From Nitrospirota bacterium (GTDB lineage Bacteria > Nitrospirota > UBA9217): 64,000 nt of DNA. The stretch is from the NCBI GenBank assembly GCA_963754875.1, contig CAVWHO010000008.1:160001-224000 (forward strand), read 5' to 3'. Under the pieces are notes generated by a model. That model ran no database searches. It saw only the letters and a program-made list of their open reading frames with translations, and was not told the DNA's origin. The position numbers and the translations under genes are program-made. Positions 16,997 through 31,015 of this stretch are shown here, piece by piece. The first letter of the stretch is position 1. Each line of letters begins with the position of its first letter.

Positions 16997-17019
16997 TGGT
17001 GCCGCTCTGGGACGGGAAT

Positions 17020-17340
17020 TTAGTCCCCGCCCTTTCCGTCGCCACCCTCAAGTTTCGAGAGCCGCGCGGACAGACCCTGGATTTTTTTCTCCAGGCTCGC
17101 CATGTCGTCGCGGGTCGGGATATTGAACTTTTCAAAGGCGGCAGAAATCGCGTCCTTGACCTTGTGATCCATGTCTTTGGTGCTCTCCTCGGCCTTGGAG
17201 ACCCATTCCTTGACAAGCGTAGCGCCCTCGTTCTTGGAAAGCTCCCCTGCCTTCACCAGCTCGTCGACAAACTCCTTGGCTTTCTCTTGTGCGCCCAATC
17301 CTGCCAGCATAGCCTTCTTGATGACTTCTGCAACCGTCAT
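17020..17340 (-). CDS. Phasin-like / PHA granule-associated family protein
   Basis: LAGLGA..EKAKEFVDELVKAGELS and NIPTRDD pattern; the usual neighbour of ubiB-like genes. Confidence 0.75.
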   Translation of the reverse strand: MTVAEVIKKAMLAGLGAQEKAKEFVDELVKAGELSKNEGATLVKEWVSKAEESTKDMDHKVKDAISAAFEKFNIPTRDDMASLEKKIQGLSARLSKLEGGDGKGGD

Positions 17341-17358
17341 GGTAGCCTCCTTTAGGAA

Positions 17359-20021
<2,663 letters not shown>

Positions 20022-20264
20022 AGCAAAACTCCTTTAATACAGGGAGTGATTATTTTGCAGATAGGAAGATAACAGAAATAACGGAAGAATTCAATATTGC
20101 TGAAATGCGAACCGGGATTTGCTTCACGCTTATTTCCAATGATTATTGTTTAACGACTACAAATAATTTTTTACGGGATCTGCCGAATCAAAGCCTTATG
20201 CAGCTACTCTTCTGACAGCTCCGTTTCCGAAGTCATGAGGTTTGCGGCACGGGTCTCTCAAGTT

Positions 20265-20715
20265 TCACTCAGAATCCCCAATGGCTTCAACATCAGCCAG
20301 ATCCTTCTTCCGCCCCAATGCCTTTTTGTTGCGAAGGAACTCCCTCTTCCCGATAAAATAAACCGGGGTGTCGCCAAAATTTCCCTGTAACGCGCCCTGC
20401 TGCTGCTGCTTCCCAGGAGACCCCGGTAAGCGAAGTTATGATATCAACCCTCACTGGAGGAACGCCAAGCTGCACAACCTTGTCCAAAGCAGTGAAATCC
20501 GTAACGACAAGCCCAAGCGATCCGAAGCCGAACGAATCAAGCGCCCGAAGAATGCGTTGTCCATTTTCCGCGTCCGGCCGAATCAAGATGTCCAAATCTC
20601 CGGTATATCTCGGCGAACCGTGATAAGCTAGTGCAAAAGCACCCACGATCATATAATCTACGTTATGAGCGTTGAATAATGCGAGCAGTTCTTTGTAGTC
20701 GTTCTGAGTTTCCAT
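20265..20715 (-). CDS. Minimal nucleotidyltransferase (pol-beta fold), frameshift near the C-terminus
   Basis: VGAFALAYHGSPRYTGDLD motif; the end reads ..RKKDLADVEAI in the shifted frame. Confidence 0.75.
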
Positions 20716-20846
20716 GACGCTCTCTCCGCAGCCAGTTCGACCGCTTCAATACGCTCTTCAGAAGATTTTGACAACCAGTAGGCGAGATTCTCCTTTAGCT
20801 CCGAAATACCATGCAGGTTTGCTTTCCTTACGATTTTAGTAATCAT
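20663..20846 (-). CDS. Small partner protein of the nucleotidyltransferase
   Basis: LAYWLSKSSEERIEAVE...RLQRTARIIQRS (one indel); overlaps the NTase start. Confidence 0.6.
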
Positions 20847-20869
20847 ATTCACCATCGATCTAAGGAACG

Positions 20870-21390
20870 CTATTCTATCGTCTTTATGATGTTACGGATG
20901 ATCTCGTAGGAAAACCCTTTTCTCTCCAGGAAACCGGCAAGCCGCCGGTACTTTGTCTCCCGGTCAGCTGATTTCAGTCGAAGAGAGTTTTTTCTCCGCC
21001 GCCTTTTTCGCGGTCTCGATTTCCGTATCACCTTCGAAAACCCGGGCGAGCGTGTCGCTTACGATCGGCGTTCTATCCCTTTGTTCCCGAGTTCCCGTTC
21101 AACCCTTCGTTTGCCCAACCCGCGCAGCCTGATCCGGCTGGAAGCAAACTGCTCTGCAAACTGACGATCGTTCACGTATCCCAACCGCGACCAGATCGTC
21201 CAGGACTGCATCAATGACAACCTGCGTCAAATGCTTTGTCCTGAAGTTTTTGCCTCAGTTCAGCGCGGCTTCTCGGTCGGTACGTGAGAAGGCGATAAGC
21301 CGCATTCCTGGCCCGGACAACTATCTTGTCGTCCTTGTCCTGCCACTGTCCCGCGGCCTTTGTCCCCTCTTCTAATTCCGCATTCCCCAT
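20870..21390 (-). CDS. recX: Regulatory protein RecX (apparent frameshifts; start uncertain)
   Basis: AAYRLLTYRPRSRAELRQKL, GYVNDRQFA, RLAGFLERKGFSYEII. Confidence 0.85.
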
Positions 21391-21525
21391 ACCGCAATCG
21401 TCATCCCGGGCACTGCCTTCATTTTTCAATGCAAATTCCGTTGCACACTCGCTTTCGAGCTTGCACCCAGTGCTATGAGTGCTCGCCACGAATACAGGGA
21501 GTGCAGGGTGAAAATCCTGCATGGA

Positions 21526-22698
21526 TCACTTTTCCCCGAACCGGTCTATCTTGAATTCCGTACCGCCGCCCGGCTTCTTTGGGACGGTTTTCCGCTTCTC
21601 ATCCTCTTCCTCGGCCATATCACTCGTGGACTGGATCCCCTTGACTTTGAGGGCGAAGTCGTCAGGATTACTTGCCGTCAGCAGCGCCTCATCATAGGTG
21701 ATATATCCCTTTTTGTAGAGCATGAGGAGCGACTGGTCAAAGGTCTGCATGCCGTAGTGCGTGAGTCCTTGCGCGATGATCGACGGGATCTGGCGCGTCT
21801 TGGCATCATCGATGATGGCCTCGCGGACCGACAGGGTGCCGAGCAGGACTTCCGCGGCCGGTACGCGGCCGCTTCCGTCTGCCTTGGCAACAAGCCGCTG
21901 GGAAACTATGCCCTTGATCACCGAAGCAAGCTGCATCCGCACTTGCTTTTGCTGGTACGGCGGAAACACGGTAATGATCCGGTTGATCGTTTCAGATGCG
22001 TCCAGGGTATGGAGCGTGGAGAGCACAAGGTGGCCGGTCTCGGCCGCGGTCAGGGCCGTCGAAATGGTCTCGAAATCGCGCATTTCGCCCACGAGGATCA
22101 CGTCGGGGTCCTGGCGCAGGGAACTCCTGAGCGCGTCGCTGAAGCTGAACGTATCGCTGCCGATCTCGCGCTGGTTCACGATGCTCTTTTTATCTCTATG
22201 GAGGAATTCGATCGGGTCCTCGATCGTGATGATGTTCGCGGTGCGGGCGGTGTTGATGTAATCGATCATTGCCGCAAGGGTCGTTGATTTACCGCTTCCC
22301 GTCGTCCCCGTCACGAGAATGAGACCGCGCTGCTCGTTCGCTATCTTCTGCAGCACCGTCGGCAGCATGAGGTCCTCGAAGGTCAGGATCTTGACCGGGA
22401 CCTGTCGAAACACCATGCCCACGCTCCCGCGCTGCTGGAACACGTTCACGCGGAACCGGCCGAGCCCCGGCACGGCATAGGCCATGTCGAGCTCGTTCTT
22501 TTCCTTGAACTTGGTTTTCTGGGCCGGGTTCATGATGCTGAGCGCGATATTGAGCGCATCTTCCTGCGTCGTCCGTTTTTCGGTTTCGATCGGCACGAGC
22601 CTCCCGTCGATCCGAAGAATGGGGGGAACGCCGACTTTCAGATGCAGGTCTGACGCCCGTTTTTCAAACGTCATCTTGAGCAGATCATTCAGGTTCAT
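21526..22698 (-). CDS. pilT: Type IV pilus retraction ATPase PilT/PilU
   Basis: ASDLHL, GTTGSGKSTT, EDPIE, LRQDPDVILVGEMRD, AETGHLV.STLH, GMQTFDQ. Confidence 0.92.
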   Translation of the reverse strand: MNLNDLLKMTFEKRASDLHLKVGVPPILRIDGRLVPIETEKRTTQEDALNIALSIMNPAQKTKFKEKNELDMAYAVPGLGRFRVNVFQQRGSVGMVFRQVPVKILTFEDLMLPTVLQKIANEQRGLILVTGTTGSGKSTTLAAMIDYINTARTANIITIEDPIEFLHRDKKSIVNQREIGSDTFSFSDALRSSLRQDPDVILVGEMRDFETISTALTAAETGHLVLSTLHTLDASETINRIITVFPPYQQKQVRMQLASVIKGIVSQRLVAKADGSGRVPAAEVLLGTLSVREAIIDDAKTRQIPSIIAQGLTHYGMQTFDQSLLMLYKKGYITYDEALLTASNPDDFALKVKGIQSTSDMAEEEDEKRKTVPKKPGGGTEFKIDRFGEK

Positions 22699-22724
22699 TT
22701 ATGCCTCCGCATGTTTTTCGGATT

Positions 22725-23828
22725 TTAGTCCTTTTGCTGGTTTTCGCGCCTTTTTCCACGATGCTCTCTTTTTCCTTTGGCGCGGCTTCTTTTGCCGGCG
22801 TGCTTCGGCACTGCCGCGTCAGGCACACCGGCGCCCGGGAGCCCCGCAGCCTGCCGTACCTTCGTCTCGATCTCCTGGGCCATGTCCGCGTGATCGTGCA
22901 GGAACTGTTTTACATTCTCCCGTCCCTGGCCGATCCTCGTCCCGCTGTACGAGAACCATGCTCCGCTCTTCTCGATGATATTTTTGTCGGCACCGATGTC
23001 GATGATCTCGCCGATCTTGGAGATGCCTTCGTTGAACATGATATCGAATTCAGCGGCCCGGAACGGCGGCGCGATCTTGTTCTTCACGACCTTTACCTTC
23101 ACTCTTCCGCCGGTCACTTCCTCGCCTTCCTTGATTGCCGATATCTTGCGGATGTCGAGCCGGACCGAGGCGTAGAACTTGAGCGCGTTGCCGCCTGTCG
23201 TGGTCTCGGGGTTCCCGAACATCACACCGATCTTCATGCGGATCTGGTTGATGAAGATGAGCGTGGTATTGGACTTGCTGATCGCGCCGGTCAGTTTCCT
23301 GAGCGCCTGGCTCATGAGCCGCGCCTGGAGCCCCATATGCGCATCGCCCATCTCGCCCTCGATCTCGGCGCGGGGCGTGAGCGCTGCAACGGAGTCCACG
23401 ATGATCACGTCGATGGCGCCGCTCCGCACAAGCGTTTCGGTGATTTCGAGCGCCTGCTCGCCGGTGTCGGGCTGGGAGATGAGGAGGTCGTCCGTGCGCA
23501 CGCCGAGCTTGCGCGCATAGGTCACGTCGAGGGCATGCTCGGCATCGATGAAGGCCGCTTGGCCGCCTGCCTTCTGCGCCTCGGCGATCATGTGGAGCGC
23601 CAGCGTGGTCTTGCCCGAAGACTCGGGGCCGTAGATCTCGATGATCCTGCCCCGCGGCACGCCGCCCACGCCGAGGGCGATGTCCAGGCCCAGCGACCCG
23701 GTGGATATCGCGGGAATGCCCGCGGGAACTTCCTCCCTGCCCAACCGCATGATGGAGCCCTTGCCGAACTGTTTTTCGATCTGGCCAACCGCCAGTTCCA
23801 ATGCCTTTAACTTGTCCTTGTCCGCCAT
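22725..23828 (-). CDS. recA: Recombinase A
   Basis: [39 protein letters not shown]. Confidence 0.99.
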
Positions 23829-23909
23829 TTTCTCTCTCCTTTCGCCGCCGCGCGGCTGTCCAGTATTTAGTTTGATTACTATAACTCAGTTCTGTCTCGA
23901 AAATCGGAT

Positions 23910-23929
23910 GTTCACATTGAACGTTGAAC
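23910..23929. promoter_or_regulatory. Candidate operator upstream of recA
   Basis: GTTCA-CAT-TGAAC palindrome plus an extra TGAAC half-site, about 80-100 bp upstream of the recA ATG. Confidence 0.4.
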
Positions 23930-23936
23930 TTTGTAC

Positions 23937-24497
23937 TTATTTAAGCTCCACCTTCCCCATCTCCGTATACACCGCGCCCGATGGTTTGAGCTCGCTCTTC
24001 ATAAGGCTGACTGCTGCCACGTCGAACCCCGACAAACGGATGTCCTTGACTCCCTCAAGCGCTTTGAGCCACTTGTCGCGGGACCGGATGTACTTGATCC
24101 GTCCGAGCGTGAGGTGCGGCGTAAACGCCCGCTCATCACGCTCGAAGCCGATGCCGCTGATCGTCTCTTCGATAACTGCCTGAAGGCTGGAGAGTTTTTC
24201 AACATCGCCGGAAAGTCCGACCCATACAACGCGTGCGTTTTTGGGGCTCGGAAACGTCCCGATACCGCCGACTTCAAGCCGGAACGGCCCGGTCCCTTCA
24301 GCAGCGCGTCGCAGTCCGTTCATGATATCCGGGACCTTTAATTCCGACACCTCGCCCAGAAATTTGAGCGTCAGGTGAATTCCTTCAGGCCTGGTCCAGC
24401 TCGCGTCCACCACACCTAAATCCCTGAGATTGCGTTGGGCTTGGGTCAGTCCAGCCTTGATCTCGTCAGAAATCTCTATGGCGATGAATGTCCTCAT
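23937..24497 (-). CDS. thpR: RNA 2',3'-cyclic phosphodiesterase (2H family)
   Basis: Two HxT motifs, HLTLKFLG and PHLTLGR. Confidence 0.93.
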   Translation of the reverse strand: MRTFIAIEISDEIKAGLTQAQRNLRDLGVVDASWTRPEGIHLTLKFLGEVSELKVPDIMNGLRRAAEGTGPFRLEVGGIGTFPSPKNARVVWVGLSGDVEKLSSLQAVIEETISGIGFERDERAFTPHLTLGRIKYIRSRDKWLKALEGVKDIRLSGFDVAAVSLMKSELKPSGAVYTEMGKVELK

Positions 24498-24583
24498 ATT
24501 TTGGACCAAGGCAACCATGTTGCCGTAACTTGACCGAAGGAACCGTTTCCCGCCTGACGCCGACTCGGTCGGCTCGCTCCATA

Positions 24584-25816
24584 CTACCCGATCAGGTATC
24601 GCCTCACCATGTCGAGCGCCATCTGCGAGGCCCTCATACGTACCTGTTCCCTGTTGCCGATGAGCCGGTACTCCGCTGTTTTGGTCCCCTGCGGAGAAGC
24701 GAGTCCGATATGAACCAGTCCTATTGGTTTTTTATCAGTCCCGCCGCTCGGCCCGGCAATACCTGTAACCGAAAGCCCCAGGTCCGTGTGCGCGGCCTGC
24801 CGGATGCCCTGCGCCATGGCAGCAGCTACTTCGCTGCTGACCGCGCCAAGGCGATCGATCAGGTCAACAGGCACGCCGAGCATCTCATTTTTCGCACGAT
24901 TGCTGTACACGACCGCCCCACGCTCGAAATACTCGGAGCTTCCAGCGATGTTCGTGATCCGTGCGCCGATCAGACCGCCTGTGCAGGATTCGGCCACGGC
25001 AAGCGTGAGCCTGCGCTGTTTCAGGAGCGCGCCGACCACCTCTTCCAGTTCCACACCGTCGACCCCATAGATCGCATCACCGAGTTTTTCCCGGATGACT
25101 GCTTCGGTCCGTTCCACAAGCGTCTGGACCTGTTCTCCGCTCGTTGCGCGGGCAATGATACGGACGTCCACGCCGGTCTCTTTGACCGATAAGCCGACCG
25201 TCGGCTCATTGCGCCGCATGATGTCCTGGATGGATTGGTTCACTGCGGACTCTGATACGCCGCAGGTGCGCAGCACTCTTCGTTTGATGAATGATTTGTT
25301 GCCGAAGCGCTGTTCGAGTGCGGGTTTGAGCACTTCGCTGTACATGGCCCGCATCTCTTTCGGGACACCGGGGAGTACGGCAAGGAACGGGCCCTCTTCG
25401 TCGATATAAAAGCCCGGCGCAATTCCGGCCGGGTTCAAGAGCAGCCGCGTGCCTGCCGGGACCAGCGCTTGCCGCTCGTTCGCGATGATGACGTCCTTGC
25501 CCCTGCCCGCGAGCCTGGCGTGGATCGCCTTGCGGGCATCTTCGTTCAGGATAAGGCGCTTTTTCGTGATCTTGGCAATCACCTTGCGGGTAACATCATC
25601 TTCCGTCGGGCCGAGCCCTCCGGTGATGATCACCGCATCAACCCGTTCCAAAGCCCGCTTGAGAGCCTCTTCCATGTCCTTTTCATCGTCCCCCACCACC
25701 GTCTTAAAGGCGGTTTCAAGGCCCACGAGCATGAGCTCTTCGGAAAGGAAAACCGAGTTTGTCTCAACAGAACCGGTCAGCAGTTCGGTGCCGGTGGCTA
25801 TGATTTCTGCGCGCAT
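24584..25816 (-). CDS. cinA: Competence/damage-inducible protein CinA (MoCF plus PncC domains)
   Basis: TGGLGPTEDDVT, LPGVPKEM, AESCTGG, TGIAGP. Confidence 0.95.
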   Translation of the reverse strand: MRAEIIATGTELLTGSVETNSVFLSEELMLVGLETAFKTVVGDDEKDMEEALKRALERVDAVIITGGLGPTEDDVTRKVIAKITKKRLILNEDARKAIHARLAGRGKDVIIANERQALVPAGTRLLLNPAGIAPGFYIDEEGPFLAVLPGVPKEMRAMYSEVLKPALEQRFGNKSFIKRRVLRTCGVSESAVNQSIQDIMRRNEPTVGLSVKETGVDVRIIARATSGEQVQTLVERTEAVIREKLGDAIYGVDGVELEEVVGALLKQRRLTLAVAESCTGGLIGARITNIAGSSEYFERGAVVYSNRAKNEMLGVPVDLIDRLGAVSSEVAAAMAQGIRQAAHTDLGLSVTGIAGPSGGTDKKPIGLVHIGLASPQGTKTAEYRLIGNREQVRMRASQMALDMVRRYLIG

Positions 25817-25902
25817 ATCGGTGGGTACCTTCCATTAATCCATGGTTCTACGCGTTGGATTGTATCATCGCAACACGTGAACAGTCAACGAAAATTGACT
25901 TT

Positions 25903-26463
25903 CTACAACAGCTCATACGCCCATATCTTCCCGTCGCTGCGGACTTCCTCAACACGCTTCACGAGCCTTTTTTTGTACAAGTTCAAGAGACGCGTGCCGC
26001 TCGTGTTTGGCTCAATTTTTTTCGCGTCCGAAAGTTCCTTGGACGTGGCTTTCTTCTTTTTCACAATAAAATCGAGCGTGTCTTTGAGATAACTGTTGAG
26101 ATTCCCCAAAACACTCCTGCTGCCGTCCTTCATTTCGGCCATGACTGCTAGGTCCTTCCGCTCGACAGCGACCTCGATATTCTCCTTCTGATTCTCGTTC
26201 AGCCCAGCAAGGAGAATGTACTTGTCCCCATACTCGCCCGAGAGCAGTCTCGACACGAGCTTAGCCACGATCTCGTCAGCGCAGGAATAGTCGATCACTC
26301 CGATTTTAGAAAAGTCGAGGCTGATGACCGCGCCATCGGGTTCTTTCTCGATGTCTTGCTCGATCCGCTCCCGGATCGCCTGACCCGATGGCCGGGTCAC
26401 GAGGTCCTTGGAACCGTTGCCGAGTTCTTCTTTTAAGAGTTTATAGAGGTCATATTTCGACAT
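25903..26463 (-). CDS. STAS-like (DUF4325-type) domain fused to winged helix-turn-helix; CapS-like regulator
   Basis: N-terminal ..TRPSGQAIR..VISLDFSKIGVIDYSCADE..; C-terminal TSKELSDAKKIEPNTSGTRLLNLYKKRLVKR..GKIWAY. Confidence 0.7.
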   Translation of the reverse strand: MSKYDLYKLLKEELGNGSKDLVTRPSGQAIRERIEQDIEKEPDGAVISLDFSKIGVIDYSCADEIVAKLVSRLLSGEYGDKYILLAGLNENQKENIEVAVERKDLAVMAEMKDGSRSVLGNLNSYLKDTLDFIVKKKKATSKELSDAKKIEPNTSGTRLLNLYKKRLVKRVEEVRSDGKIWAYELL

Positions 26464-27302
26464 TAACCGTTTACTTCCTTCAATATATATCTCCCGATTG
26501 GTTCTGCATCTGCTTCGCCGGAGACATCGAATTTTTCAAGTTCCCAGCGCCCGCCCATGCCTACGGCCTTCGCTGCAAGGTGCAGATTGGCCATCGCAAT
26601 TCCGCAGTCAAGTAAATGATAATCCTTGCCCTCTCGCTCCTGGTGTTTCTTCTTGTAGACCATGATCTCTTTGTCAATAAGGATGAAGCGCCAGGGCTGC
26701 TTGTTCATCCACGAAGGCGCCCTGCGCGCGGCTTCTAGTACGCGACCCATCCGCTCGTCTGCCAGAACTTTCTCAGGCAATGGCGTGCCAGGACGTTCCC
26801 AGAAGAAAAGCTCTTCCAGCGGTTTGCGAGTTGATGAGCCGGCCATGGCCCGAAGCGAACGGCTCACAAAGCTCTGTTCTCCAACGCGGCCGATCGGGGT
26901 CAGCACCATCACGCGCCAGGAATGATCGAGCCCGAGGTTGGAACGGAGTGATGCTTCCTTGAACATGAGACCGACCCAGCAGGTGCCCAGGCCTTTGCGC
27001 GTGGCTTCGAGGACCATCTGCTCGAAACGAAAGCCCGCGTCCATAAGATAGCCTTCGCCCTCCTTCGACGCGAGGACGATGTAGTGCGGGGCGCGGATGG
27101 TCTTGCCGTAATTGCCGATTACACCCTTGACCTCTTGGCCCATCTGCTCATGGGAACGGAGAAAGAACCGCATCTCAACCTGCGTCAGGGCTTCGGCCTT
27201 TTCGCCGGCGAGCCGGATGGCTTCGAGTTCCCCCGTCGCCACGGGTGCGGGTTCATAGGTGCGTATGCTCATGCGACGGGAAATGGCTTCCAGGATGTCC
27301 AT
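26463..27302 (-). CDS. Tandem-domain nitroreductase family protein
   Basis: RRMSIRTY, GLGTCWVG, ARRAPSWMNKQPWRF, LDCGIAMANL. Confidence 0.88.
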   Translation of the reverse strand: MDILEAISRRMSIRTYEPAPVATGELEAIRLAGEKAEALTQVEMRFFLRSHEQMGQEVKGVIGNYGKTIRAPHYIVLASKEGEGYLMDAGFRFEQMVLEATRKGLGTCWVGLMFKEASLRSNLGLDHSWRVMVLTPIGRVGEQSFVSRSLRAMAGSSTRKPLEELFFWERPGTPLPEKVLADERMGRVLEAARRAPSWMNKQPWRFILIDKEIMVYKKKHQEREGKDYHLLDCGIAMANLHLAAKAVGMGGRWELEKFDVSGEADAEPIGRYILKEVNG

Positions 27303-27404
27303 GCGGCTCCTTGTACATTTGTGACTGCCCTGCTCCAATCTTAACTTAAGGTCACAGATTGTGACCTTAAGTCTGCAACCGCAAAGGAGCGAATCGCCAA
27401 ACCA

Positions 27405-27452
27405 CTTCAATTGATTCAATTGAAGTATAATAAACTGGATGGACTTTGTCAA
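27405..27452 (-). promoter_or_regulatory. sigma70 promoter with overlapping palindromic operator
   Basis: TTGACA (27447-27452), 17-bp spacer, TATACT (27424-27429); CTTCAATTGA-T-TCAATTGAAG palindrome at 27405-27425 over the start site. Confidence 0.7.
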
Positions 27453-27532
27453 GGGTTTTTTTTGAGAAAGACCGCTCACGCAGGCCGAAGCCTGCGGCTA
27501 CAATGCTGCGTGGAATGGGAGCTGAAGGAGGC

Positions 27533-28375
27533 TTACACTTCCGGCAGCATAATGTTGATCTGGCTGCCGGGGAAAAAGGTGAGATTCCGCTCCTGGTCAC
27601 GGCCCCTCGCCCATGAAGGGATGATGGAAAGACGGGCTGTGCCGGACCGAATCGAGAGCTTGCCCTGCCACTGCGTGACGAACTTACGGACCCCGGCGAG
27701 TCCGTGTCCCCTGCCCTCGTCTTCGTAGCGCGATGCGCCGTGGAGCAGGGCCTTGTCGATGGCTTCGAAATCGCTCTTCAGTTGGAACCTGTTCGCAAGG
27801 GACTTCCGGAACCCGATGCCCACGTCCATGACAGCGATCTTCACGATATTCTTTCCCATGCTCTGGTAGCGGTACTTCTGGATGCCGACGAAGCCTTTGT
27901 TCTCGCTGTGCTCGATGATGTTCTGACAAACCTCGGATAGAGCCACGATGAAGCCGTTGATCGCCCGTTCGTCGTACCGGAGGTGCGTGGCGAGAATGGC
28001 CTGGGCGCGGTCCCGGACCTTGCCGACGATGAAGTGGATGTCGTTCGATTTTTCGATGGGAGTGATTTCGAGCAGAACGTCCGAATCGGAACTGCTTTGA
28101 TACTTCCCCGGCGTGATCGTTGACGTGTGTTCGAGAGCAAAATAATTCTTTGCAAAAGTGAAGAAGTTCAGACGGTCGAGATATCTGCAGACCTCGGCGG
28201 ACCGGGGAAGGAGGATGGTTTTCCGCACGTCTTCGAGCATACAGAGCTCGCCGATTTCAAGGAGTCCCAGCATGCCGTAGGGATCGACAAAGGAGACGTC
28301 GCGAAGGTCGATCTGTTCCGAGTGGATGAAAGAGCGGAGGGTCTTCTCGAACGTATCTTCGGTTATCTGGGTCAT
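27533..28375 (-). CDS. STAS-like plus HATPase_c anti-sigma-type kinase; CapK-like
   Basis: N-terminal IDLRDVSFVDPYG (STAS-like); GHKL boxes ALSEVCQNIIEHS, DVGIGF, GRGHGL; no HisKA domain. Confidence 0.75.
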   Translation of the reverse strand: MTQITEDTFEKTLRSFIHSEQIDLRDVSFVDPYGMLGLLEIGELCMLEDVRKTILLPRSAEVCRYLDRLNFFTFAKNYFALEHTSTITPGKYQSSSDSDVLLEITPIEKSNDIHFIVGKVRDRAQAILATHLRYDERAINGFIVALSEVCQNIIEHSENKGFVGIQKYRYQSMGKNIVKIAVMDVGIGFRKSLANRFQLKSDFEAIDKALLHGASRYEDEGRGHGLAGVRKFVTQWQGKLSIRSGTARLSIIPSWARGRDQERNLTFFPGSQINIMLPEV

Positions 28376-28836
28376 CGGTTGAGCAAATAAGCAGCTATCT
28401 GGAGCAGGATGTTCGTGTACACCCCGGCCCCGATGTCGTCGAGCATCACACCAAGACCGCCGTGAACATCCTGCAAATCATGGAGCGGCCAGGGTTTCAG
28501 AATGTCGAACACGCGGAAGAGGATAAAACCTGCAGCAACATATCCCCAACCAACAGGAACCATGAACATGGAAATGAGATAGCCGGCGATCTCGTCGATC
28601 ACGATCGACGGGCTGTCCCGTTTGGCGAGTAATACTTCAGCACGGCCGGCGGCCCATGTCCCGATAATACAGACCAGGCAGGTCAGGATACTATAAGGAA
28701 GGAGACCGGCATTCTTCACCGCCACATAGAGAAGAACACCCACGAGCGTTCCTGCCGTACCCGGCGCAAAGGGGGACTTCCCGGAATACGCACCTTCTGC
28801 GATAAAAAGAATGACTGCGTTCGATGCTTTGCTCAT
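28372..28836 (-). CDS. pgpA: Phosphatidylglycerophosphatase A
   Basis: APGTAGT, IVIDEIAG, FRVFDILKPWP, GGLGVMLDD. Confidence 0.95.
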   Translation of the reverse strand: MSKASNAVILFIAEGAYSGKSPFAPGTAGTLVGVLLYVAVKNAGLLPYSILTCLVCIIGTWAAGRAEVLLAKRDSPSIVIDEIAGYLISMFMVPVGWGYVAAGFILFRVFDILKPWPLHDLQDVHGGLGVMLDDIGAGVYTNILLQIAAYLLNR

Positions 28837-28924
28837 CTGCCTCAATTCTTTGAAAATTCGGTGCATGATAGCGAGCGCTCTTGGGTGTTATGGGGCGAGT
28901 TATTAATGGTCAAAAAATGATATA

Positions 28925-29013
28925 GACCCATCCCCTTCTTCAGTCTCCCCCTTGAAGGGGGAGAAATACGGTTCCCCTCTCCTTCAAGGAGAGGGCTGGG
29001 GTGAGGATGGGTC
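28925..29013. repeat. Composite palindromic REP/MITE-like element
   Basis: GACCCATCC...GGATGGGTC ends enclose TCTCCCCCTT-G-AAGGGGGAGA and CCCTCTCCTT-C-AAGGAGAGGG hairpins. Confidence 0.7.
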
Positions 29014-29026
29014 CTGAGTGAAAGAT

Positions 29027-29608
29027 CTACATATCCCCGTTCTTATCCAGTTGCACACCACCGTCAGCGCCCTGCGGGATGGAGCACCGGAGCGCATCGA
29101 ACGCCAGGAGAACGCGCTTCTCCCGCTCCAGCTTTTCCGGGGCAATCGGTTGTAATTCTTTTCCCGATAGCATGGCGATCAACTGCTGCTTCGACGGGAT
29201 CGCATCAAACCCTTCTCCAATGACCTTACCCGTCATCGTATCGAGTATCACTGCACTCATCGGGTCCATGACCACTGCGACAGGGACGGGCAAACTGTTC
29301 AGCACGCGCGCCGCAGCCACGACATGCCGTTCCCGGGACGACAGAGAACCGGGGGCGCATTTGACCACCATCGCCTGCCTGTTGTCCACGGTCACGAGGA
29401 AGTCCACGTGTGACTCCACGGTCTCAGGCCCCAGCGTAACAGGAAAGCGGATATTTTTCCGCACATCAGCCTGGGTATATCCCTTCTCATTGAGAAGCAC
29501 ACGCTCCGCGATATGCTTTACCGCAGCCGTCATCTCTTCACCGTCAGAGATCTCCTGCTCAAGGATGGAGAGAATTTTCTTTTCCCGAGTTACAAATTCG
29601 TCTTCCAC
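29027..29608 (-). CDS. Stand-alone HsdR N-terminal-like (restriction-endonuclease-fold) protein
   Basis: LLNEKGY..., VDFLV...MVVKC, ARVL pattern. Confidence 0.6.
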   Translation of the reverse strand: MEDEFVTREKKILSILEQEISDGEEMTAAVKHIAERVLLNEKGYTQADVRKNIRFPVTLGPETVESHVDFLVTVDNRQAMVVKCAPGSLSSRERHVVAAARVLNSLPVPVAVVMDPMSAVILDTMTGKVIGEGFDAIPSKQQLIAMLSGKELQPIAPEKLEREKRVLLAFDALRCSIPQGADGGVQLDKNGDM

Positions 29609-29625
29609 GTTCTAACCTCGAATCA

Positions 29626-30219
29626 TTATTTTTTCTTCGCTGACTTCTTTGCCGAAGCCTTGCGTCCCTTGGCCGGCTTTGTTGGACGTTTCGCAGTTTT
29701 CTTAACGGTCTTTTTGACGGCCTTTTTGAGTGTTTTCTTCGCCGCTTTTTTTGCAGTTTTCTTGGCTGCTTTCTTTGCCGCTTTTTTCTTCGGAGCCGAG
29801 CGTTTCGGCGCGACAAGCTTAGCGCTTGGCATCAGCGTGGTAGAGCCGGACGCGGTCGTTCTGGCCGGGATCTGCAGCGGCGCCTGTCGCGGCTGCCTCT
29901 CCGGCAGGATCCCGAGAATGTTTCGTTCGCGCACCAGGACCAGTTCCTCGCCGTTTATGGTGTAGGTCTGGCCCGCAAACTGTTCATAAAGCACACAGTC
30001 GCCCGGCTTTACGGTCGTGGGAATGAACCGGCGGTCTTTCTTCTCGACTTTTTTCTTTCCGTACTTTTCCTCCTCCAGGGCGCCGGGGCCGATCGCCTCG
30101 ACGACGCCTTCGTGGGGCTTTTCCTTCGCCGTATCGGGAATGATGATGCCGCCCGCGGTCATCTCGTCCGCTCCGGACGGCCGTATCACGGCCCAGTCTT
30201 GCAATGGTGTAATGTTCAT
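29626..30219 (-). CDS. groES: GroES-like co-chaperonin with long Lys/Ala-rich C-terminal tail
   Basis: PLQDWAVI, TAGGIIIPDTAKEKP..GVVEAIGPG, VKPGD.VLY; tail KKKAAKKAAKKTAKK... Confidence 0.8.
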   Translation of the reverse strand: MNITPLQDWAVIRPSGADEMTAGGIIIPDTAKEKPHEGVVEAIGPGALEEEKYGKKKVEKKDRRFIPTTVKPGDCVLYEQFAGQTYTINGEELVLVRERNILGILPERQPRQAPLQIPARTTASGSTTLMPSAKLVAPKRSAPKKKAAKKAAKKTAKKAAKKTLKKAVKKTVKKTAKRPTKPAKGRKASAKKSAKKK

Positions 30220-30436
30220 AGTGTTCCTCCTGTCAGTAAGATACGGTCATGCACGTATTATACGGAAATTTGTCCCTCCTGTCAAAACAAGGGATGAATA
30301 ACCGCGGCAAAAGGCGGGACAGGCGTCGGCAGAAAAACTGCCTTGACAGCAGGGCTGCATCATTGTATAAGAATGCTGTTCGCAGCTCCTTCTGGGTGCT
30401 CGGTTTTTGAGACTATGTTTTTACGGGAGATACATT

Positions 30437-31015
30437 ATGAAGAATACCGGCCTTGCATTACTCGCAGCATGTGTTTTACTCTTGTCAGGCACCTTGGCCT
30501 TTGCAAAAACCATCAGGAGTTCATCTGCCGGATTACAAACAAGTGAAGCGGAAGTGGACGGTTCCTTCGCTTTTGCAACGGGGCCGGGGTCTTTTGATAC
30601 GGGTTACGGCCTCAATTTCGGCGCAGGTTACACGTTAGGCGAGATCGATAAGAACCTCCAGGCAAGGGTGGACATTTCGTATTTTCAGTTCTCCTACGAC
30701 TACGCTTTCGGCGGGGGCTCGACCGGCCTGAATTATACGAGGGTACCCATCACTGTCAGCGGGAGATACTACCTCCCCGTCATGGATAAGCTGAGGGTCT
30801 TTGGCCAGGCAGGACTGGAAACCAGCTTCGATCATTCTGATTATTATTCGGGCGGCAACAAGCAGTCGAAGACCGAATTGAATCTCGGCATTTCACCAGG
30901 CGCGGGCGTTGAATTCTTCGTGAACAGGCACATCAGCATCTTCGCCCTCGGCCGTGCGCATCTTATTTCAGACAGCTACTTCAGCATGCAGTTCGGCATT
31001 GCGTCGTATTTTTAG
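30437..31015 (+). CDS. Outer-membrane beta-barrel protein
   Basis: Signal peptide, alternating beta-strands, C-terminal aromatic (..ASYF). Confidence 0.8.
   Translation: MKNTGLALLAACVLLLSGTLAFAKTIRSSSAGLQTSEAEVDGSFAFATGPGSFDTGYGLNFGAGYTLGEIDKNLQARVDISYFQFSYDYAFGGGSTGLNYTRVPITVSGRYYLPVMDKLRVFGQAGLETSFDHSDYYSGGNKQSKTELNLGISPGAGVEFFVNRHISIFALGRAHLISDSYFSMQFGIASYF

Follow-up and report, generated by a model that had tools for sequence, protein, structure and literature searches.

The window analysed here, a 64,000-nucleotide (nt) stretch from a Nitrospirota bacterium (contig CAVWHO010000008.1, positions 160,001 to 224,000), carries upstream of cinA-thpR-recA a two-gene switch of the CapK/CapS type, consisting of a serine kinase (K) and a winged-helix repressor (S) that very probably form an autoregulatory kinase-repressor pair at a single promoter, P1. 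We further propose, tentatively and at slightly below an even chance, that this switch has become fixed before cinA-thpR-recA, with the P1 transcript reading on above a basal level set by a second promoter, P2. The computed basis of this reading comprises homology, key residues, the promoter and palindrome sequences, the uniqueness of the palindrome per genome, synteny and the lack of terminator-like sequence past S. An earlier reading of the letters alone (the sequence-only reading) had recognized the kinase and the STAS-winged-helix protein upstream of cinA-recA, which is confirmed, and had omitted the nitroreductase gene that separates them. The elements concerned are as follows.

27533..28375, minus strand: K, a CapK/VapK-like STAS-GHKL serine kinase of 280 residues without an N-terminal helix-turn-helix (HTH)
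27424..27452, minus strand: P1, a sigma70-type promoter, TTGACA-17-TATACT, matching the consensus at 11 of 12 positions
27406..27424: predicted S operator, the 19-bp palindrome TTCAATTGA(A/T)TCAATTGAA, overlapping the P1 -10 and start site
26463..27302, minus strand: nitroreductase (TM1586-like; Pfam E 1e-35), the present cargo of the slot between P1 and S
25903..26463, minus strand: S, a CapS-like STAS and winged-helix repressor of 186 residues
25859..25888, minus strand: P2, an operator-less promoter, TTGACT-18-TACAAT, beginning 14 nt past the S stop
24584..25816, minus strand: cinA (NCBIfam match above cut-off)
23937..24518, minus strand: thpR (ligT), RNA 2',3'-cyclic phosphodiesterase (TIGR02258 above cut-off)
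22725..23828, minus strand: recA (TIGR02012), one copy in the genome

K and S are each single-copy in the genome, and the genes overlap in that K starts within the stop of pgpA and S within that of the nitroreductase gene. The sole perfect copy of the palindrome in the 4.3-Mb genome lies at P1, the runner-up having 2 mismatches. The position of P1 behind K is conserved in relatives, and 66 of 77 K loci have the palindrome, with at most 3 mismatches, within 1.5 kb past K, in nearly every case after a TTGACA. A degenerate operator pattern derived from the palindromes of the K loci matches 48 of 61 genomes of the family, at a single site in all of these except G061, and the reversed control matches none. 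The operator and S also co-occur: S is found in 47 of the 48 operator-bearing genomes and is absent from 10 of the 13 operator-less ones. The CapS 'narrow' site lies between capK and capS over a -10 (PMC13373217; Chambers et al., EMBO J 2026; PDB 9Z71-9Z73; cited throughout from the accessible parts of the paper and its supplements), and the predicted operator occupies the matching position, between K and S and over the -10. From these sequence patterns, the palindrome is likely the operator through which S represses P1. As it occurs once per genome, S runs no SOS-like regulon, at odds with the SOS-like regulator proposed in the sequence-only reading. Binding of S at the cinA and recA promoters, also proposed there, is not supported either: the sole operator lies at P1, upstream of the nitroreductase gene, cinA has the operator-less P2, and a genome scan allowing up to 4 mismatches gave no copy of the palindrome at cinA or recA. 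The second operator-like site of G061 (L169:3526-3544) is imperfect and lies between two genes that by eye resemble prophage terminase subunits.

The kinship with CapK/CapS, previously drawn from domain architecture, is borne out by the alignment of both proteins and by the STAS and winged-helix folds on modelling. S matches the crystallized CapS sequences by phmmer (9z72, E 2e-5 over residues 10-179; 9z71, E 0.16), and a fold search with its AlphaFold model (predicted local distance difference test score, pLDDT, 89) matches STAS domains over residues 1-116 and winged helices over 121-186. Ser60 of S falls in register with Ser54 of CapS, is invariant in 38 of 38 homologs, and is the phospho-serine position by homology. 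K aligns with an Escherichia coli CapK homolog (locus L085) by hhalign at a probability of 95.7 and E 1e-8, with ∼21% identity to CapK. The alignment begins at about residue 65 of CapK, the HTH region being absent from K; this N-terminal HTH is dispensable in CapK (PMC13373217). N152 of K corresponds to the catalytic N218 of CapK and is invariant in all 111 diverse full-length homologs (107 picked by length from the 150 matches listed, plus 4 references), and the closest folds to the K model (pLDDT 78) are SpoIIAB and RsbW. F29, invariant in 37 of 37 close homologs, corresponds to F54 in the same motif of VapK by a register hand-counted from the appendix sequence of PMC13373217 and anchored on the catalytic Asn, as the VapK numbering in that paper runs 5 ahead of its listed sequence. 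Mutation of VapK F54 abolished phage protection, and the Phe was proposed to stack on single-stranded DNA (ssDNA) (PMC13373217); the basic hairpin is likewise retained in K. As K lacks the HTH and carries F29 at the position of VapK F54, and S matches CapS, the pair is best described as a VapK-shaped kinase with a CapS-shaped repressor.

By analogy with the CapK/CapS paper (PMC13373217), an S dimer would repress P1 through the single palindromic operator, and K, on meeting ssDNA, would phosphorylate S at Ser60; on this analogy, ssDNA is somewhat favoured as the signal for K. From the layout, transcription released at P1 would take in the cargo gene and S and probably proceed into cinA-thpR-recA, such that P2 would set basal and P1 inducible expression of these genes; any effect on the amount of RecA is likewise read from the layout. 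No terminator-like hairpin is present between S and the next gene in the window or in any of 31 loci, and P1 transcripts could thus run into cinA-thpR-recA. The strict P2 pattern is found in 18 of 31 loci, 11-61 nt past the S stop, and about 4 further loci have near-matches. P2 carries no copy of the palindrome; a differently spaced site there was sought by eye only. Since P2 is operator-less and no terminator intervenes, any control of recA would take the form of read-through atop basal expression. That P1 read-through reaches cinA-recA is probable, that it matters physiologically is a claim we lean somewhat against, and induction of recA through P1 lies between doubtful and nearly even. Of the 21 loci with pgpA ahead of K, 6 (L087, L090, L095, L098, L106 and L113) have a promoter of the P2 type before pgpA as well, which suggests that the promoter was duplicated when pgpA moved; among relatives, pgpA lies before K in some and after S in others.

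Linkage of the pair to cinA-recA, noted in the window by the sequence-only reading, holds across the family and is not peculiar to this genome. S is present in 50 and K in 51 of the 61 family genomes, and S and recA lie on the same strand, 1436-3243 nt apart, in 44 of the 49 genomes that have both. The remaining five carry the two on separate contigs, in assemblies of 230-510 contigs. In a sample of the phylum, S was found in 34 of 36 family genomes versus 10 of 114 others. In the open-licence literature searched, no description of a recA-linked CapKS-type switch came up, and what is new here is the genome-wide uniqueness of the operator, the recA linkage across the family and the separation from LexA.

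A number of observations weigh against recruitment of the switch to recA. The conserved promoter of cinA itself, P2, carries no operator. All cinA-linked S proteins among 80 S loci fall in one clade that includes the window (20 rows; SH-aLRT 99 in a quick tree), so the recA link amounts to one landing followed by inheritance, and the 44 genomes count as one event. In G077 (89% complete), the groES-hsdRN-pgpA-cinA-thpR-recA block is intact but contains neither K nor S, and a repair gene lies behind S in none of 13 Planctomycetota and none of 3 Nitrospinota loci, where the module is kept with restriction-modification (R-M) cargo. At the level of the proteins, the DNA-contact residues N145 and K151 of CapS are replaced by T154 and L160 in S, implying that the recognition helix has changed; the contact set N145, K151 and G169-G170 is not matched, and wing Gly178 is kept in at least 90%. 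W68 of CapK aligns to K Q3 in the close alignment, or to K F29 in the diverse alignment only. A Phe at that STAS motif is common among ordinary anti-anti-sigma factors, so F29 of K is not proof of ssDNA sensing.

The rival account that survives best treats the module as a signal-controlled slot for defence and mobile cargo only, which landed once before pgpA/cinA and left recA a bystander driven by P2; we hold this possible, if well short of even. The single origin of the recA link, the conservation of P2, the G077 block and the Planctomycetota loci all agree with it, as do the contents of the slot. Among 32 family loci, the K-S slot holds cargo in 15 and is empty (no open reading frame, ORF, of at least 70 residues) in 17. 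The cargo, scanned in 56 of 61 ORFs, includes ORF6N in 11 of the 15 loci as well as MazF/PIN toxin-antitoxin pairs and transposases. Slots in other lineages, where the scan covered 74 of 126 recurring cluster representatives, contain methyltransferases and restriction nucleases of R-M type. Across 80 S loci and 77 K loci, no nitroreductase match was found. The earlier statement that no immune effector is adjacent is true of the window, where no PADLOC system match was found among the genes scanned, and fails for relatives, whose slots hold ORF6N, toxin-antitoxin and R-M genes. A second type of palindrome is present in the slot of 6 relatives' loci, all bearing ORF6N. The window has the same type without an ORF6N gene, and similar letters occur within ORF6N coding sequence; it is probably left over from cargo that once occupied the slot.

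27346..27370: second palindrome, of the type seen in ORF6N-filled slots of relatives

The module also occurs, in the order K-operator-cargo-S and at 65-76% identity, in the anammox Brocadiae Brocadia, Kuenenia, Jettenia and Scalindua and in Nitrospinota (L017-L080), a sequence similarity pointing to transfer between phyla.

Against a bystander role for recA stand the 17 of 32 slots that are empty with K, S and operator intact. In 16 empty-slot loci, K and cinA both have a median ratio of nonsynonymous to synonymous substitution (dN/dS) of 0.11, with S at 0.10 and recA at 0.06; these values are rough, as dS is near saturation. Such purifying selection on K and S implies that the switch is maintained even where nothing but the switch itself and the genes downstream is left for it to control, although a recently emptied slot would give the same picture. 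The module is, moreover, near-fixed in the family (34 of 36), unlike typical defence islands; no terminator-like sequence follows S, and repair genes lie directly next to it in several independent places. In sister lineages, addAB, dinG, rmuC or mutS lie behind S. Loci with complete S numbered 79, and 6 with less than 1.5 kb downstream were left out. Outside Planctomycetota and Nitrospinota, cinA/recA, rmuC, mutS, addA or dinG follows S on the same strand within 1.5 kb in 52 of the 57 loci. The start follows the S stop by 5-6 nt for addA (2 loci), 1 nt for dinG (1 locus) and 6-18 nt for rmuC (9 of 18 loci), and in the mutS loci a hexamer resembling a -10 is placed directly at the S stop. As the loci are related, these landings may represent three or four events, with rmuC itself possibly belonging to the mobile unit.

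An alternative that keeps the same wiring has K read a signal other than ssDNA, e.g. the nucleotide, redox or energy state sensed by its STAS domain, and the operon answer a different stress. The low identity of K to CapK, its missing HTH and the ambiguous W68 position leave room for this, as do the redox-type cargo at the window and the top folds of K, given that SpoIIAB and RsbW are not known to sense DNA. We consider it unlikely, however, because K keeps the VapK-type Phe and basic hairpin, the cargo and downstream genes are mostly DNA-related, and homologs precede CBASS and Pycsar. The latter are distant pairs of HTH-less K and S, at 28-37% identity, from two genomes of the family (L168:3816-8016 and L170:2459-7507), each followed by an LRAT-like small gene and then by Pycsar (L168) or by CBASS with patatin and E2 (L170), and they connect the lineage with the canonical use beside immune genes.

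Two lexA genes are present in the genome. The promoters of the dinB-lexA operon and the second lexA each have a predicted LexA box, GTGAAC-N4-GTTCAC, assigned from its position, between their -35 and -10.

G000 C9:13327-13355 and C13:26905-26936: predicted LexA boxes at both lexA operons

Genome-wide, the box has only two perfect sites and one single-mismatch site. No copy with up to 2 mismatches is found in window positions 19900-30500, and the core motif appears between S and recA in 4 of 29 related loci, every time inside coding sequence; the cinA-recA region thus lacks the predicted box. In the family, lexA is found above cut-off in 51 of 61 genomes and a promoter-embedded box in 43 of 61, at 1-4 sites each, and this suggests a very small LexA regulon. 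As the box marks the lexA and dinB promoters and not cinA-recA, LexA is retained, though it likely exerts no control over recA; its replacement by the K/S pair, as once suggested, is not what the 51 genomes with lexA indicate. A missing LexA box alone does not imply another inducer. That S substitutes for LexA as a global SOS-like repressor at cinA, recA and other repair promoters is very improbable: the boxless recA region and conceivable degenerate S sites would allow it, but 47 of 48 operator-bearing genomes have one operator, no near-match lies at cinA or recA, lexA is widely retained, and of 36 single half-sites in the genome only 4 are near promoter-like sequence, two of these being the operator itself.

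With CapK/CapS the locus shares a STAS-GHKL kinase gene followed by a STAS-winged-helix repressor gene, the phospho-serine and catalytic Asn in register, a palindrome over a promoter between the two genes, and homologs beside CBASS/Pycsar and R-M genes. It differs in the HTH-less K, identities of about 20-25%, the altered recognition helix of S, an operator TTCAATTGA-W-TCAATTGAA as opposed to the TTAA half-sites of CapS, the lack of a second operator on the downstream promoter, and the presence of housekeeping repair genes downstream in a near-fixed module, in place of an immune operon. All 443 capK genes in PMC13373217 are immediately followed by capS, whereas cargo (here the nitroreductase) separates K and S in the window and 17 of 32 family loci have the two side by side. 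A term search covering 13 of the 14 supplements turned up neither cinA nor any Nitrospirota in the CapKS list. Given these differences in HTH, operators, cargo and immune operon, K/S is a variant and not a plain member of CapK/CapS. VapK of VapKSC is likewise an HTH-less STAS-GHKL kinase with the Phe (F54, K F29 by hand count), but VapKSC is a three-gene operon of kinase, STAS antitoxin and VapC PIN toxin (PMC13373217), whereas the predicted substrate of K is a DNA-binding repressor, and library scans and a fold search found no PIN/VapC gene in the window locus. SpoIIAB/SpoIIAA and RsbW/RsbV are the top structural matches of the kinase domain of K and the STAS domain of S and share the D-x-S motif, but here no sigma factor is nearby, S has its own winged helix and K its own STAS domain.

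LexA-independent induction of recA has known precedents. WYL proteins provide one route. Another uses a protease: under IrrE/DdrO control in Deinococcus, cinA-ligT-recA is transcribed from a constitutive start and from an inducible one that does not depend on LexA (PMC5552922). The three-gene block, LexA independence and two-start design are the same, but there a protease cleaves a global repressor with many sites, whereas a predicted kinase, one site and read-through would operate here. LexA-independent recA is also recorded for Geobacter sulfurreducens and Bdellovibrio (Jara 2003; Campoy 2005; titles in the PMC8565304 reference list), with LexA similarly confined to its own operons and unbound at recA, and those titles name no kinase-repressor regulator. 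In the parts of PMC13373217 available, the serine-kinase partner switch is demonstrated for immune operons only.

On the minus strand, the full gene order is groES-like, hsdR-N-like, pgpA, K, nitroreductase, S, cinA, thpR, recA, pilT, recX, a small unrelated gene and alaS. The features flanking those given above are as follows.

29027..29608, minus strand: gene with an HsdR-N-type nuclease domain (Pfam HSDR_N_2, E 1e-7), recurring upstream of K in family loci
28372..28866, minus strand: pgpA (Pfam PgpA), heading the pgpA-cinA-thpR-recA block
21526..22698, minus strand: pilT/pilU-family ATPase (TIGR01420)
20870..21402, minus strand: recX (RecX_HTH1), with tblastn pieces in three frames

Upstream of K, family-wide, the HsdR-N-type gene is accompanied by a groES-like gene with a long Lys/Ala-rich tail (29626-30219). 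Both recX and alaS (about 17000-20020, minus strand) are broken across several frames, and as alaS is essential, these splits are likely assembly indels and not marks of pseudogenes. The small gene between them (20293-20715) is nucleotidyltransferase-like, with weak Pfam matches below cut-off.

In its widest form, the proposal is that an anti-phage ssDNA-sensing switch has been domesticated as a recA inducer independent of LexA and RecA* throughout the family and, in sister lineages, as the inducer of addAB, dinG and rmuC. A single damage-inducible promoter would then serve both the repair genes and exchangeable defence cargo, and RecA, by covering the ssDNA that activates K, would provide negative feedback. 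We put this forward as conceivable, with more doubt than confidence. Should P1 transcription continue into cinA-recA, a core repair gene would be subject to a damage response based on phosphorylation, and a regulator from defence would have been taken over for a housekeeping role. Should it stop short, what remains is a clearly defined slot for regulated cargo, present family-wide and equipped with a new predicted operator sequence.

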